64,000 nt of DNA from a phage: sequence record PZ338878.1, one strand, 5' to 3'. Under the pieces are notes generated by a model. That model was not told the origin of the DNA and searched no databases. It worked only from the letters and a program-made list of their open reading frames with translations. Shown piece by piece: positions 6,295-57,954 of this stretch. How positions within the stretch are numbered: the first letter of the stretch is position 1; every line of letters begins with the position of its first letter. The position numbers and the translations under genes are program-made.

Positions 6295-9170
6295 TGTCAA
6301 GAATTAAGCACAGAATTGACAATGTTTTTCAACTGATCGATGGACATATTCAGTTCTTAGATCGTAATACAGGTTTAACTGTAGATCCTACAGTGCAACA
6401 CTATGTATTAAACCCACAAAACGTTCTAGCTAATAACAGACACTTTATAAACTGGACTGCTCAAGAAGGGCAACCAAACGGGGATGCTACAACAGAAGGT
6501 CAATCCGTGCTTGTTCTTGGTTGCGCTTATGCATACCTAGCTTCCGGCGATACAAAGTATTTAGACTCTGCTAAAAAATATTGGCAAGCCTATATAGATT
6601 ACTTCTTTGGTGGTCAACCTATCCCAGATCCGCCAGCAAAATATCGCCCTAACTGGATTATTAACGGTAAAGAACCACGTCTTGCACACTATCCTCTTAC
6701 AGATGATGGCTACCCTACACACGGAGGTTTTAAGGGTAGCTTAATGACGTGGACTAACGGTAGAACAGTTATTCCTCATGGTGCTCCACATTGGGGAGAA
6801 TACCTTGATAAAGCATGGTTTGCTTTTAATGGTAATCTAGGATGGAACTCTGTAAACGCTACAGTATATGCTGTTAATGCAGATGGAACAACAGATTGGT
6901 CTAAGAATGGAGATCAGTGGGACGTTGATTGGATCATTGATCGTCTAGGACGTAAAGTTGATTGGGATGGAAATATCTTAGAAGAAGGTTTTCCAACATC
7001 TCAATACGGAACAGTTCAACTAAAAAATACTTCTGTCAACGGTACATATAAATTTAACTACGCGACTTGTAACCCTGTTGAACACGGCGGTTATTTAATG
7101 GAGCGTAACACTATGTGGCATAACAGACCAGTTAACGTTCCGGTAGAAATGGGCTTTCAGGATAATGCGTCAGATGCCGAAACTTGGTGGTGTGATGCTA
7201 ATTACCTGATGTACCAAATTACAGGAGAAAGAAAATATTGGCTATGCTGGCAGTCTTCACTGTTAGTGTGTCAAGATTACTCAAACATTGATATGTTTGA
7301 TAAATTCTTCCGTAAATCTACATATGCAACTATTCCGTTTACAGATGGCATCTCTTACGATTATTCGTATCCATCTACAGCAATACCTAAATATTCAAGA
7401 GATACTTTAGGTTATATTGTTATTAGACAAGATGTTGCTGCTCAAACAACATTAGAACAGCAAGCCATTTGGTTTAAAGTTGATCAGAACTCTAAGTTAC
7501 GAGTTCAGTTCCAAGGTGTAGATGACGTAGGACATGGTATCCTTTTCCGTCCAGAATTGGAGCTAAGTAAGACCAAAGATGAAAATAACACAGTAACTTA
7601 CCGTTGTGGTTTACCACTAGGTACAGCTAATATGACAAGCATGGATATTCCATTATCCAGCTTTATGAGAAGTACCCCTCCGAATGGTGGAACATATATT
7701 ATCGCAGACCCGCGAATTATTGTTGACTGGGGTGACAATACTGTGGTACAATATAAGTATGTAACAGGTATTGCTGGAACTAATAATGACCAGATTGTTA
7801 CTGCATCAATGGATACGGATGGTGGTATCACTGTTGGTTTTTGGTTAACTCCTACATCAAAAGCTAATGTTAAGTCTATCACATATAGAACATATGAAGA
7901 TGACTTTAACATGACTATCACGGATGCTCAAGGTTGGAGATGGTGGGCTATGCTGCCTAAAACGCAAGGGGCATGGAGTACGAAGACTTTATCAGCCTCT
8001 GCTTTTAAGTTAAGTGCTTATCAGCCTAATCATCCAGAAACAGATCCTAAACCTTCAGCAATAAATCTTACTGCGGTAGATCAGGTAAATTTAGTTCTGG
8101 ATACGGCTCCTGTCAATGGTTTAACAGGAACAATAGATTTCTATTGTATTAACGATGTACCTGAAAGATATTCATCATCTTCTGGTGATGATTATACCAT
8201 GTACTTCCGTATCACTGTACAGGCTTCAAGTTCTCATACTGCTAAGTTAGGTGATTGTACTATTATTGACTATAAGTTAAATAGTCTTAATTACACACCA
8301 GGAATAATTCCATTCTCTAATATCAGTGACCCAAACACTGCATTATACGATGGATGGCGTGGTATTCCATACCCAGGATACCAGTATCCTTCCTTATACT
8401 GTTTCGCAGGTAGGGATATTGATTGGACACGTTTAAACAACAGTATTGATTTCTTGTATGATGCTCAAATGTGGTTTTATAACACGTTTGATCCTGTGAT
8501 GCCTGGGCCTATGGCACAAGCATATGTGTGGGATCGTTGGGATGCAAGAAAATACGGTGAACCGAATACGTTCACAATGAAACACTGGAATGAAAAAGCG
8601 TGGGATGGTTATGAAGCTCGTGCATTCTACTGTGCTTGTCATGCTGTATACGAACTTGTACAAAGAGGAGAAACACCTCCTGAAAAACTGGTAACAGTTT
8701 GTAAAAATTGGATCAACTACCTTAAATGGTTCCAAGACAATAATGATGGAAGAACACCAACTATCTTTAACCCAGATGGTACAGTTCTTGCACCTATAGA
8801 TGACTTTACTAGTCATATGTCTGCACTGTTTATGGCTGGTTGTTCAATCATGGGTTTGGCAGGTTATGATTCACAAATTCCAAACATTGGTATTGTAGCA
8901 GACAGATGTTTTGATCTGATTCAGCAAAACTATATTGTGCTTTCCCCTAACCATCCGATGAATGGTTGTTGGAGTGTTGCACCGCGTCCAGATTCAGATA
9001 ACGGAATGTTCTTTGGTTTCCATGCTGGAGAACTACTACGTGGTTTTGGTTTATATGCTTTATATCGTAAACTAAATCCTCAAAACGCCTTACCAATTTT
9101 GGACAATAGTAACATACCGACACTAACTGTTCTAACTATGAATGATATTAGTGTTGATGTAACCAAATAA
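6294..9170 (+). CDS. large virion structural protein, possibly enzymatic
   Basis: 958 aa ORF in the baseplate/fibre region; TAATG coupling to upstream gene; Trp/Tyr-rich carbohydrate-binding-like composition. Confidence 0.45.
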   Translation: MSRIKHRIDNVFQLIDGHIQFLDRNTGLTVDPTVQHYVLNPQNVLANNRHFINWTAQEGQPNGDATTEGQSVLVLGCAYAYLASGDTKYLDSAKKYWQAYIDYFFGGQPIPDPPAKYRPNWIINGKEPRLAHYPLTDDGYPTHGGFKGSLMTWTNGRTVIPHGAPHWGEYLDKAWFAFNGNLGWNSVNATVYAVNADGTTDWSKNGDQWDVDWIIDRLGRKVDWDGNILEEGFPTSQYGTVQLKNTSVNGTYKFNYATCNPVEHGGYLMERNTMWHNRPVNVPVEMGFQDNASDAETWWCDANYLMYQITGERKYWLCWQSSLLVCQDYSNIDMFDKFFRKSTYATIPFTDGISYDYSYPSTAIPKYSRDTLGYIVIRQDVAAQTTLEQQAIWFKVDQNSKLRVQFQGVDDVGHGILFRPELELSKTKDENNTVTYRCGLPLGTANMTSMDIPLSSFMRSTPPNGGTYIIADPRIIVDWGDNTVVQYKYVTGIAGTNNDQIVTASMDTDGGITVGFWLTPTSKANVKSITYRTYEDDFNMTITDAQGWRWWAMLPKTQGAWSTKTLSASAFKLSAYQPNHPETDPKPSAINLTAVDQVNLVLDTAPVNGLTGTIDFYCINDVPERYSSSSGDDYTMYFRITVQASSSHTAKLGDCTIIDYKLNSLNYTPGIIPFSNISDPNTALYDGWRGIPYPGYQYPSLYCFAGRDIDWTRLNNSIDFLYDAQMWFYNTFDPVMPGPMAQAYVWDRWDARKYGEPNTFTMKHWNEKAWDGYEARAFYCACHAVYELVQRGETPPEKLVTVCKNWINYLKWFQDNNDGRTPTIFNPDGTVLAPIDDFTSHMSALFMAGCSIMGLAGYDSQIPNIGIVADRCFDLIQQNYIVLSPNHPMNGCWSVAPRPDSDNGMFFGFHAGELLRGFGLYALYRKLNPQNALPILDNSNIPTLTVLTMNDISVDVTK

Positions 9171-53423: not shown

Positions 53424-53858
53424 TTAGTTTAAAATTTCTTTTGCAATGGTAGAAGCAAGTTTTCCATCATATTGATTCGGATACTCTGCTTTAAGGTGTT
53501 TCATCATATCTGGCATTTTCTTGCCTGTCAAGGCAAATTCTTCAGCAATAGCTCGAAGATCATCTTCAGATAGCATTTCTGGTAAATATTTTTCCAGAGT
53601 GGTGATATCACGCATAGCTCGCTCACACTTGCTAAGGGAAGCATTAACTTTCTTAAGTGAGTCTAGTTCCTCTTTAGCGTGTGCAATACCAATCTTAACA
53701 ATGTTAATCATAATATCGTCTTCTGATTTGTTTAGATTTGCCTTTTGAGTACGAGCAAGGTCAAACTCACCAATAATATTAGTTAACAAAGCAAAAGCAC
53801 CCTTATCGGTTGTACGTGCTAAGATACGATCTGCTTTCATTTGTGTCACAATAGACAT
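53424..53858 (-). CDS. GatB/YqeY-domain protein
   Basis: 144 aa; LEKYLPEMLSEDDLRAIAEEFALTGKKMPDMMKHLKAEYPNQYDGKLASTIAKEILN closely follows YqeY-type architecture. Confidence 0.65.
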   Translation of the reverse strand: MSIVTQMKADRILARTTDKGAFALLTNIIGEFDLARTQKANLNKSEDDIMINIVKIGIAHAKEELDSLKKVNASLSKCERAMRDITTLEKYLPEMLSEDDLRAIAEEFALTGKKMPDMMKHLKAEYPNQYDGKLASTIAKEILN

Positions 53859-53870
53859 TCTATTCTCCTC

Positions 53871-54443
53871 TTATTTGCTAATGCTTTGAATTTTATTTAC
53901 AACACGGTTTATTGCCAGTGAAGCCCTAGGCTCTGCAATACCTGTTGCATAGATATAAGGATGACCTTTTGGAGACTCCCTCATACCGAATGAACCTAAT
54001 TCTAAACCATATTCATCCTCTACGTCAACCCCAATATTAGTGGGTACTAAATATGTTTTAACTCCATAATAAGTAGAGAAGAAACAGCGCATAGCGTTAG
54101 CATACTCTTCAATTGTAGCATCAGGGTAGAACTCAATCAACTCCAATTTCAAGAAAATATTAAAATGAGTATCATCTAAATTTTCTTCTGTACGGTAACA
54201 TGGTGTTAGTGCCATATACGGATTACCTGCTGCAAATTCAAAACCATCCTTCTCCATTTGCAGGAAAGATTGTTCTGCACTAGCTACATAGTATTTACCG
54301 TTAGGATGCCCTAATGGGCGATCCTCTTTATTTTCTGGTAATGTGTACGCCAGTATATCAGCATCCACGAGATATGGAACTTCTAACATTTGTGCAAATC
54401 GACCATAGTAATCAATAGCTTGAGCTATTACTGCAACATTCAT
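53871..54443 (-). CDS. hypothetical protein, possibly class II aminoacyl-tRNA-synthetase-like core
   Basis: MALTPCYRTEEN...FLKLELIEF weakly resembles class II aaRS motif 2; only 190 aa. Confidence 0.35.
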   Translation of the reverse strand: MNVAVIAQAIDYYGRFAQMLEVPYLVDADILAYTLPENKEDRPLGHPNGKYYVASAEQSFLQMEKDGFEFAAGNPYMALTPCYRTEENLDDTHFNIFLKLELIEFYPDATIEEYANAMRCFFSTYYGVKTYLVPTNIGVDVEDEYGLELGSFGMRESPKGHPYIYATGIAEPRASLAINRVVNKIQSISK

Positions 54444-54701: not shown

Positions 54702-57476
54702 TTAGTTTACCAGTTTATTTATGTCTGGTAAAAGATTTATTTCACCTAAAAAATCACCTTCACCTTCCTCTAGCCAACTCTCATATGCTTGTGCATGATT
54801 ATAGTTACCATCAAAAGAATCTGCAACAAATTTTTCTACAGTTTTTCGAGATGTGCCAGCGCCAAATACACCAAGTTTAATACCATTGATCGGTAAAGTA
54901 GGGCTTGTTGGTACTTTCTCTGTTGCAACACGGTTGATATCTATAATCTCTTGTACAGTTGTATTCCATTGTAAGCATTTAACACAACGGGTATGCGCTA
55001 CATACAGTAAGTTTCGCTCTGCCTCTTCTAGTCCTACCCATTCACCAGTCTTTTTATCATAGTTGGAAGGAAAATCATTAGCAACAATAACCTGATCCCA
55101 CTCCAAACCTTTAGACTTATGTGCTGTAGTCAGTGTGACTTTTGCTGTAGGAGAATTTCTATGCGTTCTAAGTGTATGTGCTATAGTGTTTGCCTTGCCA
55201 GAAACTACGATGTTTAACAAGCGTTTAGCATCTGGATCAGCCTCTGCACACTCAACAAATTCATTCCAGTCTGCGTAAGGTAATACAGTTTCATGTTTTA
55301 CTTTCTCAATATCCCCTCTCCGAAGAGCATTAACACTATCCACCATAGAGATAAAATCCCTGGTATCTACGTTAATAATAATTTCTTCCCCATCTGCAAT
55401 ACGATCCATTGCCTCCATAAGCAAGGTTAAATTCTTGCGAAAGATGATAGTGTAAGGTTTTGTATAGTCTACAACATCTGATTTGTAGCTACCTACTACA
55501 GTATCAAAGCCTTTACCAACCAAAGGATGACGCAAAGGTTCTTTATCACTTAAAATCATATTCGCAATGTTTGCCACTTTGGGGCCAAAACGGAAGCAAG
55601 CAGTTAATGGAAGCTCTGCCCCATACTTAGCTGTTTCAATCATCATATTAGAGCTACCTCTAAATTGATAAATGCAGTTGTGGCTAAGAATTTCATTGCC
55701 AAAAAAGTTAGCAGTATCTTCTACTTCAATATCATAATAGATACCCTCACTATCTACAATGTCCACAATCTCTTCTGCCGTTACAGTATCACCATCTTTT
55801 ACTAACACAGACATGCCTTTAAACAAACCCGCTGCCGGAATTAAATTATATTTGGGAGTGTTCACAGAGGACATGCATTCTTTTAAAGATGCAAACGGAA
55901 CTATTTCAAGGATCTTTTGTGCAAAACTCAATGCTTCACGATAAGAATTGAAATATTTACGTACACGGTAACGACCTTCCAATTTAGCAACACTTACGCT
56001 TACACCTGCTTCAATGAGTGAGGCATAGATTGGCATTTCACTTTCTGTCCACTCAAAGCTAACTTGTGTTCCTTTACAACCTTGTGCTCGCAAAGTCACT
56101 GTTAACATTTTTCTTGCATCTACTGCACAATTGATGCTGTGCCAATGTGGATAAGCAAAATGATAGTCTTTATCCTCTAAAAGTTTAAAACCATTTTGTC
56201 CGAATTGTTCAAAGATATTGTTGATCCTTTCTTGATTAATACCGCGTGAACTTGCTTCAAATACACAAGTAGGAATGCCATATTGTAAACTGTATGCCAT
56301 TTCTTTTTCCATAGCAGCTTCACGGTTTTCAACAATATCCAACACCCACAACTTCTGTGCTTTTTCAGAACGTGTACGTTGCCCCAGTTTAGAAAAACCT
56401 TCTTTATCATCGAATTTGTTAGTGATCCCTACTCGGAAACCTAAATCTTTTCTCCACATTAGGTATACCACCATCTGATCATCTTTCAGAACATAAGGTG
56501 AAGCCCAAATACGATGGTTATGTGTCATATCTAAAGTCTTACCTTTAGCAGTAATAATATTCCTACCTTTTGTACGTGTAGATAAAGTCTTATTTGTTAC
56601 TTTTCTAAATGTAACTTTACCGTTAGAATAAGACTCTACCTTATCACCGATTTGCAGGTCTTTCATTGTAACCTGACCATTTTCGGTATTAAGTACCGTG
56701 TTTTCTGACACACATTGGAATTCATCACCAACTACCACAATTTGTTTGGCAGATTTAGCATTCCGCAGAATAGACAAGAATGCAGGGTTAACATCCTGGA
56801 ATTCATCCCCAAAAATAATGTCATAACCAAGATCAGCACCAGACAATTCAAACAATTTTACATAGGTGTCATGCGTCATCAAAGTATCTGTGTTAGGATC
56901 AATGCGCTCTCGCCACAATTGTTTTGCATACTTAACTACTTCTGTAATTAGTTTGTGTTCGTTAATACCTTTTCTTTTAATATCTGCAAGATGTACACCA
57001 GGAAAATGTTTACGGCTGATAAAAGGATCATCCGAAAATTCAAACTTACCTACGGTTTGCTTGATCATTAAACCAATCATAGCACGAGTTAAAAGTGTTT
57101 TCCCTCGTTTATCAATAAGATTATTAATCTTAAATTTCTTTGCTATCTCACTACCTGTACCTGCAACGTTAACATACTGTCCTTCTGGTCGTGACAGTTT
57201 TGCACGTAAACGATGATCCAGGAATTGATAGCAAATGGAATGCAATGTACGGCATTCTACATTTGGTGGCATCTTACGCCGTGCTTCTTCTGCCATGCTT
57301 TTATTGAAAGCTAAGTAAAGAATGCGATCTTCTGTACTGTTAGCCAGCAAATAAAGTGTTGACGTTTTTCCTGATCCAGATTTAGCTTGGATAGTTAAAA
57401 ACCGATGATCTGGAAAAGCCTCCTTAATAGCTGTTTGCTCTTCTGTTGGAGTAAAACTCAACTCTTTCTTAGCCAT
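54702..57476 (-). CDS. UvrD/Rep-like superfamily I DNA helicase containing an intein
   Basis: ORF-track 54702-57515, start at ATG 57476; Walker A AKSGSGKTST, motif II GDEFQD, motif III split by insertion (VVVGDEFQ | intein | CIYQFRGSS). Confidence 0.75.
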   Translation of the reverse strand: MAKKELSFTPTEEQTAIKEAFPDHRFLTIQAKSGSGKTSTLYLLANSTEDRILYLAFNKSMAEEARRKMPPNVECRTLHSICYQFLDHRLRAKLSRPEGQYVNVAGTGSEIAKKFKINNLIDKRGKTLLTRAMIGLMIKQTVGKFEFSDDPFISRKHFPGVHLADIKRKGINEHKLITEVVKYAKQLWRERIDPNTDTLMTHDTYVKLFELSGADLGYDIIFGDEFQDVNPAFLSILRNAKSAKQIVVVGDEFQCVSENTVLNTENGQVTMKDLQIGDKVESYSNGKVTFRKVTNKTLSTRTKGRNIITAKGKTLDMTHNHRIWASPYVLKDDQMVVYLMWRKDLGFRVGITNKFDDKEGFSKLGQRTRSEKAQKLWVLDIVENREAAMEKEMAYSLQYGIPTCVFEASSRGINQERINNIFEQFGQNGFKLLEDKDYHFAYPHWHSINCAVDARKMLTVTLRAQGCKGTQVSFEWTESEMPIYASLIEAGVSVSVAKLEGRYRVRKYFNSYREALSFAQKILEIVPFASLKECMSSVNTPKYNLIPAAGLFKGMSVLVKDGDTVTAEEIVDIVDSEGIYYDIEVEDTANFFGNEILSHNCIYQFRGSSNMMIETAKYGAELPLTACFRFGPKVANIANMILSDKEPLRHPLVGKGFDTVVGSYKSDVVDYTKPYTIIFRKNLTLLMEAMDRIADGEEIIINVDTRDFISMVDSVNALRRGDIEKVKHETVLPYADWNEFVECAEADPDAKRLLNIVVSGKANTIAHTLRTHRNSPTAKVTLTTAHKSKGLEWDQVIVANDFPSNYDKKTGEWVGLEEAERNLLYVAHTRCVKCLQWNTTVQEIIDINRVATEKVPTSPTLPINGIKLGVFGAGTSRKTVEKFVADSFDGNYNHAQAYESWLEEGEGDFLGEINLLPDINKLVN
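55677..56714 (-). mobile_element. intein (about 346 aa) inserted in helicase motif III
   Basis: Begins with Cys after DEFQ (CVSENTVLNTENGQVTMKDLQIGDKV), ends ...FGNEILSHN followed by +1 Cys; codons checked at both junctions. Confidence 0.65.
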
Positions 57477-57477
57477 T

Positions 57478-57954
57478 TCAACCTCTCTTAATTTGTTTAA
57501 CAAGCATAGGAACAAAATCTCGTTTTAAAATTTGTTCAATAATATGATCAGGTAGCTGTTGGAAATTATAATTAAATGCTACTGTCTCACCTTTAGGTGT
57601 TTCTACCCGCACATATAGCATGTTACGAAGTTTATCCACTTGTGCTGTATATTCTAAACCACGTAATTGATGCATTGCAAACATCAAATCATCAGTTTCA
57701 GTTTGGAATCTATCCCTTGTTTGCATCAAGGATAAGGCAAAAGGTAGATTTTCCCTAAGAGCCACCTTCTTAGGCACTAATGAAGGGAAATACTCCCCAA
57801 TAACTTCCTGTGTAAGCTGAATACACTCTTTTTCAAGCTGGTTTTGTTCCTTGAGTTCACAAACACTTTTTTGTAAAGTGTTAACCTCTTTTTGCAAAGC
57901 TGCTAGTTGAGTATTTAACTTTCTTTTTTGATTACGACCAAAACGTTTAGACAT
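57478..57954 (-). CDS. hypothetical coiled-coil protein
   Basis: 158 aa; basic N-terminus and coiled coil. Confidence 0.45.
   Translation of the reverse strand: MSKRFGRNQKRKLNTQLAALQKEVNTLQKSVCELKEQNQLEKECIQLTQEVIGEYFPSLVPKKVALRENLPFALSLMQTRDRFQTETDDLMFAMHQLRGLEYTAQVDKLRNMLYVRVETPKGETVAFNYNFQQLPDHIIEQILKRDFVPMLVKQIKRG

Follow-up and report, generated by a model that had tools for sequence, protein, structure and literature searches.

Inteins and their endonucleases in phage helicase genes

Canonical inteins such as PI-SceI carry a Hint (splicing) domain, into which an endonuclease module of the LAGLIDADG or HNH class is inserted in frame, interrupt a conserved catalytic motif of the host protein and follow a homing lifestyle. 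Nucleases of the GIY-YIG type are stated to be absent from inteins (PMC1564403; PMC2677866); they had been found "not ... in inteins" (Dunin-Horkawicz, 2006). A survey from 2025 lists endonucleases of the LAGLIDADG, HNH, VSR-like and EndoVII-like types in the coding regions of inteins; GIY-YIG is named once among the intein-associated endonucleases, and no intein carrying one is reported. Here, an intein of 346 amino acids (aa) is described, which interrupts the UvrD/Rep-type superfamily 1 (SF1) helicase gene of a phi92-like coliphage of the genus Justusliebigvirus. The gene lies in a stretch of 64,000 nucleotides (nt) from sequence record PZ338878.1, called the window in the following. This intein shares the features named above with the canonical inteins and appears to differ from them in the fold class of its nuclease. 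The intein itself was already known from GenBank annotation, and its central domain appears to belong to a widespread, unnamed GIY-YIG-like family.

The same gene with an intein at the same site (97–99% identical) is present in the BASEL coliphages JohannJBalmer (MZ501084) and PaulScherrer (MZ501100) as well as in phage ZYD (PQ110661). These records annotate an "intein-containing UvrD / Rep family helicase precursor" with an intein mat_peptide, and inteins were identified in the course of annotation (Maffei et al., 2021; PMC8594841). In these records and the literature searched, no comment on an endonuclease domain, mobility or co-conversion was found; a prior description of the central domain was not found either in this literature, the coverage of which was partial. 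The annotation of coliphage inteins is little known, since a paper from 2024 still states that none have been reported in coliphages (PMC11162368).

A further relative at the same site is the intein of the UvrD-type helicase gp34.33 from Bacillus phage SPO1 (275 aa; annotated also in CampHawk and Goe2), with the junctions GDDDQ / C...THN / SMYSFRG (spaced slashes mark the ends of the insertion). It shares the GIY-like core with conserved Y, R-V-G, R, W and E. It differs in sequence (~26–30% identity), starts with CQPAG and is devoid of the beta-rich C-terminal subdomain described below. Compared to the GIY-YIG nucleases I-TevI, the T4 Seg proteins, SLX1, UvrC and PD-T4-3, the central domain of the window intein has no match to the Pfam GIY-YIG family, contains an Arg in place of the Tyr of the YIG motif and lacks the NUMOD or zinc-finger DNA-binding modules. 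Furthermore, it is embedded in frame within the Hint domain, whereas GIY-YIG homing endonucleases are free-standing or intron-encoded.

The intein and its site in helicase motif III

The first-pass annotation of the window, made from the sequence alone, had reported an insertion of 346 aa at positions 55677–56714, which begins with Cys and ends with SHN followed by Cys; the strand was missing. The translation of the minus strand, on which the gene is encoded, confirmed this insertion. Here, 346 stop-free codons run from CVSENTVL to NFFGNEILSHN and are flanked by QIVVVGDEFQ and CIYQFRGSSN. The proposed junctions KQIVVVGDEFQ / CIYQFRGSS are therefore read as claimed, and so is the interrupted motif III of a UvrD-like helicase. 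The host protein passes the Pfam profiles PF00580 (UvrD-helicase, 45.8 bits at a cutoff of 23) and PF13361 (UvrD_C, 42.2 against 25.6) and matches the DNA helicase family phrog_1967 (E=1.9e-162). Once the intein is removed, motif III (GDxxQSIYxFRG) becomes whole.

The comparison with intein-free helicases, which had been proposed in the first pass, is clear-cut. In five sibling phages of the genus (alia, ESCO9, inny, BME3 and J-01) the helicase is uninterrupted, ~98% identical and devoid of exactly these 1038 nt. The gene minus the insertion is 1737 nt long, which equals the length of the helicase gene in these five phages. Their junction reads GDEYQ / SIYQFRG, thus the insertion point follows the pattern GDE(F/Y)Q / (C/S)IYQFRG across full and empty alleles, and the +1 residue after Asn346 is a Cys here and a Ser in the empty alleles. 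In the GenBank record of a BASEL phage the intein mat_peptide comprises 347 aa (L001 3973-5013, equivalent to window positions 55674-56714) and includes the +1 Cys. Since only 346 aa yield a mature helicase of 578 aa, the length of the intein-free homologues, the first-pass boundaries are preferable and the annotated peptide is one codon too long.

The Hint-like block noticed in the first pass is supported by profile searches. Pfam Hint (PF01079) scores 29.8 bits at a curated cutoff of 29.7 and TIGR01443, the intein C-terminus profile, reaches 20.0 bits at a cutoff of 15.6 over residues 327–346. Pfam Intein_splicing (PF14890) matches at E=2.7e-8, so that a chance similarity is not a reasonable explanation. 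The scores of this profile (34.2 bits at a cutoff of 35.8), which is slightly short, and of the intein N-terminus profile TIGR01445 (20.5 bits at 24.5) fall below the curated cutoffs and count against the assignment. The N-terminal Hint part is modelled as all-beta, with mean predicted local distance difference test (pLDDT) values of 85–95 per 10-residue block over residues 1–70. For the C-terminal part weak sequence matches in the Protein Data Bank (PDB) to the Spl DnaX and gp41-1 mini-inteins were obtained. On these matches and the sequence hallmarks Cys1, block B T64-x-x-H67, His345-Asn346 and Cys+1, the insertion is classified as a class 1 intein with a Hint fold in motif III of an SF1 helicase.

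The coordinates of all features are compiled in Table 1. The precursor likely starts at the ATG at 57476 (MAKKEL), in agreement with the start annotated in sibling phages; the neighboring upstream gene stops at 57478. The full open reading frame (ORF) spans 54702-57515 on the minus strand, extending 13 codons beyond this ATG up to a TTG. The gene is 99.4% identical to that of phages AMO3598 and PD06 and 97.4% to that of phi92. A foreign base composition was not seen, the GC fraction being 0.367 in the intein and 0.375–0.382 in the exteins. A separate out-of-frame or antisense endonuclease gene within the intein was considered and dropped, because only ORFs of 61–77 aa are present there.

Table 1. 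Features of the helicase-intein locus and of free-standing relatives (window positions unless a contig is named)
Feature	Position	Strand	Remarks
Helicase precursor coding sequence	54702..57476	minus	924 aa, ATG at 57476; UvrD/Rep-type SF1 helicase, phi92-like phage
N-extein	56715..57476	minus	254 aa; C-terminal end ...VVVGDEFQ is the first half of motif III
Upstream divergent flank	56715..56744	minus	~30 nt; read as co-conversion tract
Intein	55677..56714	minus	346 aa, 1038 nt; Cys1, block B T64-H-N-H67, His345-Asn346 at the C-terminal end
N-terminal Hint (splicing) part	56490..56714	minus	Residues 1–75; Hint, Hint_2 and TIGR01445 matches over residues 1–73
GIY-YIG-like putative nuclease core	56259..56489	minus	Residues 76–152; beta-beta-alpha-beta-alpha unit (~81–145)
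Three short helices	56115..56258	minus	Residues 153–200; conserved RGLNQxRINxIF..FGxNG; secondary structure from model
Beta-rich C-terminal subdomain	55839..56114	minus	Residues 201–292 (~204–290 in model)
C-terminal Hint part	55677..55838	minus	Residues 293–346, blocks F and G, ...YYDIEVEDTANFFGNEILSHN
Downstream divergent flank	55625..55676	minus	~52 nt; holds the Ser-to-Cys change at +1
C-extein	54702..55676	minus	324 aa plus stop; starts Cys(+1)-IYQFRGSS, second half of motif III
Free-standing copies (P0039, P0056, P0002)	L016 4001-5002, L017 2087-3088, L019 3001-4053; L018 4001-4798		Downstream of helicase in L016, L017 and L019; upstream in L018

A central domain with a putative GIY-YIG-like fold

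The central domain (intein residues 76–293) has no match in Pfam, NCBIfam, PHROG, PADLOC or among the PDB sequences; the profile scans, which covered the central domain of the window intein alone as well as 31 family members, gave no recurrent match. Searches of the PDB sequences, for which both the intein and the family profile served as queries, resulted in weak matches to intein C-termini only and in none to the central domain. The first-pass annotation had seen no clean LAGLIDADG or HNH motif, and indeed the profiles of Pfam, NCBIfam and PHROG matched neither a LAGLIDADG motif pair nor an HNH (beta-beta-alpha-Me) motif. The letters HNH within THNH belong to block B of the intein.

An AlphaFold model of the central domain, built from a 31-sequence alignment, has a mean pLDDT of 89.8 and displays three parts. 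Within the first of these, a three-stranded sheet is flanked by helices, as in the GIY-YIG superfamily. A Foldseek search against the BFVD database placed about nine GIY-YIG/NUMOD proteins in the top 50 weak matches, after the self-match and two intein matches. Furthermore, a 110-sequence profile of the N-terminal subdomain was aligned by hhalign to an alignment of seven GIY-YIG endonucleases from the T4 record. This resulted in a score of 21.5 (P=0.0016, 69 columns), compared to a mean of 9.5, a standard deviation of 1.9 and a maximum of 16.4 for 200 column-shuffled templates. In the register obtained, VYLM lies on GIY, RVG on YIG and E138 on the column of the catalytic Glu. Y84 of VYLM is invariant wherever this segment is present; one N-terminally truncated homologue lacks it. 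R113 and E138 are invariant as well and are placed by the model in helices 1 and 2, respectively.

Several observations weigh against a GIY-YIG nuclease. The YIG motif is incomplete, since Gly96 is invariant but the Tyr is replaced by the likewise invariant Arg94 (F-R-V-G). That R113 may correspond to the catalytic Arg is suggested by where the model places it within helix 1, and not by a superposition. The hhalign probability amounts to just 16%, and the signal is obtained only with the seven-sequence T4 alignment, whereas the lone I-TevI sequence gives none (probability 0.1%). None of the 31 members has a Pfam match to PF01541, T5orf172 or MUG113 even at E<=10, and the NCBIfam, PHROGs and PADLOC scans gave no GIY-YIG profile match to the central domain. 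Foldseek against the PDB yielded nothing at E<=0.001 and a mixture of weak matches (Prp, eIF1/SUI1, LAGLIDADG halves). Every structural score for this assignment is weak. Due to these weak scores, the missing match to a curated profile and the Arg in place of the YIG Tyr, the label "GIY-YIG-like" is used here. Considering the model and the motif register together, the N-terminal unit of the central domain probably has a GIY-YIG-like fold.

The three short helices that follow would be a DNA-binding linker. The beta-rich subdomain is missing from the SPO1 and Streptococcus suis versions, where the alignment has a gap, and evolves fastest within the intein (nonsynonymous divergence, dN, of 0.21). 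Its Foldseek similarities to eIF1/SUI1, Prp and LAGLIDADG halves are weak, and it would represent an accessory DNA-recognition domain.

A large and conserved family

A word-indexed protein search had retrieved just 2, then 8 homologues, and an exhaustive HMMER search was needed to reveal the family. This search returned 669 cluster representatives with a threshold of E<=1e-3, and 211 with E<=1e-10. Of the 150 homologues listed, nearly all lie inside large SF1 helicases. The commonest site among them is GDxxQ / C...HN / (S/C)IYxFRG; other sites are VDE / C...HN / CQDLN, DEAQDLNK / C and ANRLIAHN / C. Across the family alignments Y84, M86, R94, G96, R113, E117, W123, E138 and G146 are conserved, and the putative catalytic positions among them stay invariant in hundreds of divergent homologues down to ~25–30% identity. 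In the first pass the insertion was suspected to hold a degenerate or an unusual endonuclease. Since the central domain belongs to a large conserved family, it is not degenerate; the second part of this suggestion is in line with the GIY-YIG-like fold proposed above.

A related copy with 60% identity is present at motif III in Klebsiella phage KP13-16. The helicase of this phage (L002 1240-4836, 1198 aa, annotated as hypothetical protein) holds two inteins. The second one is of the LAGLIDADG type, is located in the P-loop (AGTGK / AQPLT...VTHN / TSTL) and has Ala instead of Cys or Ser as first residue. Family copies also split ParB-N6-methyltransferases of S. suis prophages, so that the family is not confined to helicases. 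In one of these prophages (L004 1625-3736; P0003, P0004), the gene of a ParB-N6/N4 DNA methyltransferase is interrupted at QHEP / CQPAG...VTHN / CLYGWK by an intein with the GIY-like core. Another relative of 398 aa was observed in the unannotated, uncultured 485-kb phage LR745208 within an ORF of 1748 aa with a UvrD-like region (L005 598-5844). It is located at DEAQDLNK / C...SHN / CQHIMF and contains ~60 extra residues ahead of the C-terminal Hint part.

Distribution, flanking sequences and selection

The distribution of the intein among near-identical phages is patchy. The intein (at least 95% identity) is present in ~37 records and the helicase (at least 95%) in 56; these are counts of records, some of which are duplicates. 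The divergence of the exteins from the empty alleles is clustered around the insertion point. In each comparison with the five intein-free siblings, 25–27 of the 53–64 extein mismatches lie within the 82 nt from -30 to +52, which corresponds to a divergence of ~30% compared to ~2% elsewhere. The 27 nt that directly precede the insertion correspond to the allele type of Klebsiella phages, being identical to phage KP2025 and having two differences from FKP3, and are unlike the type of the intein-free E. coli phages. Such a clustered divergence is the pattern expected of co-conversion during homing from a diverged donor. A point on the other side is that selection acting on the recognition site, instead of co-conversion, could account for part of this divergent flank.

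The comparison of the window with KP2025 further revealed a much lower age of the intein compared to its host gene. The value for synonymous differences per site (pS) is 0.24 in the intein versus 0.74–0.79 in the exteins, at amino acid identities of 91% and 82–85%, respectively. Since the synonymous sites of the exteins are saturated, the low value of the intein indicates that it was exchanged long after the host genes had diverged. The intein evolves under purifying selection, its ratio of nonsynonymous to synonymous divergence (dN/dS) being 0.22 over the whole length, 0.06 in the GIY-like core and 0.02 in the C-terminal Hint part. From these comparisons it appears that the intein has been mobile between phages and probably still is today.

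Four records labelled "Campylobacter phage" with the host Campylobacter jejuni (MG065639, MG065645, MG065656 and MG065689) contain a helicase and intein that are 97% identical to those of E. coli phi92-like phages. This host label looks doubtful and may reflect mislabelling or contamination.

Free-standing relatives without splice residues

Several homologues of ~265–366 aa comprise the whole intein module without Cys1 and without the terminal His-Asn, and end for example with ...ILIHE or ...VLLHS. In four contigs such a free-standing copy immediately adjoins an uninterrupted UvrD-like helicase gene, the motif III of which reads GDxxQ-AIY (Table 1). The contexts of P0148 and P0075 are uninformative, since in these short contigs no adjoining helicase is seen. 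As free-standing homing endonuclease genes behave likewise, this arrangement argues for a DNA-directed function of the module, which would be aimed at the helicase gene and independent of splicing. The copies look like a transition from an intein to a free-standing homing endonuclease.

In one of these contigs, L018, a canonical GIY-YIG gene with a PF01541 match (6306-7112, minus strand) was observed immediately downstream of the helicase, which has the intein-derived ORF on its upstream side. Due to this, the helicase gene is flanked by two different putative homing endonuclease genes.

The HO endonuclease of yeast is an intein-derived, free-standing LAGLIDADG nuclease, which has been domesticated for mating-type switching. 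Like HO, the copies in L016 to L019 have kept the Hint scaffold and the nuclease and have lost the splice-junction residues. Unlike HO, they adjoin the helicase gene in the manner of selfish free-standing homing endonuclease genes. The element in the window, on the other hand, is still a true intein.

Proposed mechanism and alternative explanations

Taken together, the insertion in the UvrD-like helicase of this phi92-like phage is read as a class 1 intein, which is probably still mobile and would carry a GIY-YIG-like homing endonuclease; as a whole, this explanation is regarded as probable. According to textbook intein chemistry, the 924-aa precursor would splice itself, with Cys1 forming a thioester. 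The N-extein would then be passed to Cys+1 and Asn346 would cyclise, aided by His345. The expected products are a 578-aa helicase with an uninterrupted GDEFQ-CIYQFRG and the free intein of 346 aa. The latter would act as homing endonuclease, with its catalytic core at residues ~81–145 in the GIY-YIG-like fold, and would bind DNA via its three helices, its beta-rich part and possibly also the Hint domain. Its substrate would be a helicase allele without intein in a co-infecting phage. The cuts of GIY-YIG enzymes typically produce 3' overhangs of 2 nt and are often located at some distance from the insertion site. Repair off the intein-bearing genome would then copy the intein together with ~30–50 nt of flank on each side.

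A different explanation would be a splicing-competent intein, the central domain of which is an inactive remnant or has a DNA-binding or folding role, and which spreads passively by ordinary recombination of co-infecting phages. This would fit to a domain that matches no nuclease profile, has weak fold matches and lacks the canonical second Tyr. Furthermore, phages of this group recombine readily, and a patchy distribution is possible from recombination alone. However, the putative catalytic positions are invariant in hundreds of homologues as divergent as ~25–30% identity, and the dN/dS of the core is as low as 0.06. In the comparison of E. coli with Klebsiella phages, the age of the intein is also far below that of its host gene, and the mismatches are tightly clustered around the insertion site. 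That splice-dead free-standing copies are kept intact beside helicase genes is difficult to reconcile with a module that has no function by itself. This explanation is regarded as unlikely, but as more probable than the two others.

The two other explanations have far less in their favor. A degenerate LAGLIDADG endonuclease, and thus the canonical type for inteins, would account for the many LAGLIDADG meganucleases among the weak Foldseek matches in the PDB. These probably arise via the beta-rich C-terminal subdomain. Since this search is without a significant match, the weak ones are mixed, and the LAGLIDADG proteins among them have a probability of at most 0.41, such an origin was rejected and is considered very improbable. 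For a native accessory helicase domain that is not removed, it can be said that splicing is a prediction; nothing else favors it. In contrast, the exact absence of the 1038 nt from ~98% identical siblings, in which the helicase is uninterrupted, rules out a native helicase domain. In addition, the segment splits the universally conserved motif III, has every splice-junction residue of an intein, and related copies are present in unrelated hosts (the ParB-methyltransferase) and at other helicase sites. This makes it the least credible of all explanations. By the same comparison, the first-pass concern that homologous helicases might have this segment as a conserved native domain is dispelled.

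Neighboring genes

Downstream of the helicase, beyond an ORF of 83 aa, two small genes are located on the minus strand (53424-54443). In sibling records they are described either as tRNA-synthetase-like or as amidotransferase-like and histidyl-tRNA-synthetase-like. A search with ARAGORN identified no tRNA genes in the whole 64-kb window.

Implications for inteins and their phages

For the helicases of this phage group, an annotation as precursor with mature peptides is advisable, and the central domain merits a profile in the family databases. Going further, and only tentatively, the central domain might represent an undescribed class of intein-borne homing endonucleases, i.e., a divergent in-frame GIY-YIG nuclease, in which Arg takes the position of the second motif Tyr. 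It would form a large family specialised on SF1/UvrD helicase genes, which are interrupted in motif III, within or just after motif II, or at an ANxLIxHN site, and would be found in a DNA methyltransferase as well. This family would repeatedly yield free-standing, splice-dead derivatives beside the helicase gene, which would be a phage counterpart of the step from intein to HO. If true, this would contradict the absence of GIY-YIG nucleases from inteins stated in the literature (PMC1564403; PMC2677866). An active GIY-YIG-type nuclease would add a further in-frame endonuclease class to LAGLIDADG and HNH, the VSR-like and EndoVII-like types being known in other arrangements, and would imply a more frequent capture of nucleases by inteins than is assumed.

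The free-standing copies beside intact helicase genes would document the step from an intein to a free-standing homing endonuclease gene. Furthermore, the intein-plus phages phi92 and the BASEL phages, together with the intein-minus phages alia and inny, offer a tractable E. coli phage system for intein homing and co-conversion.

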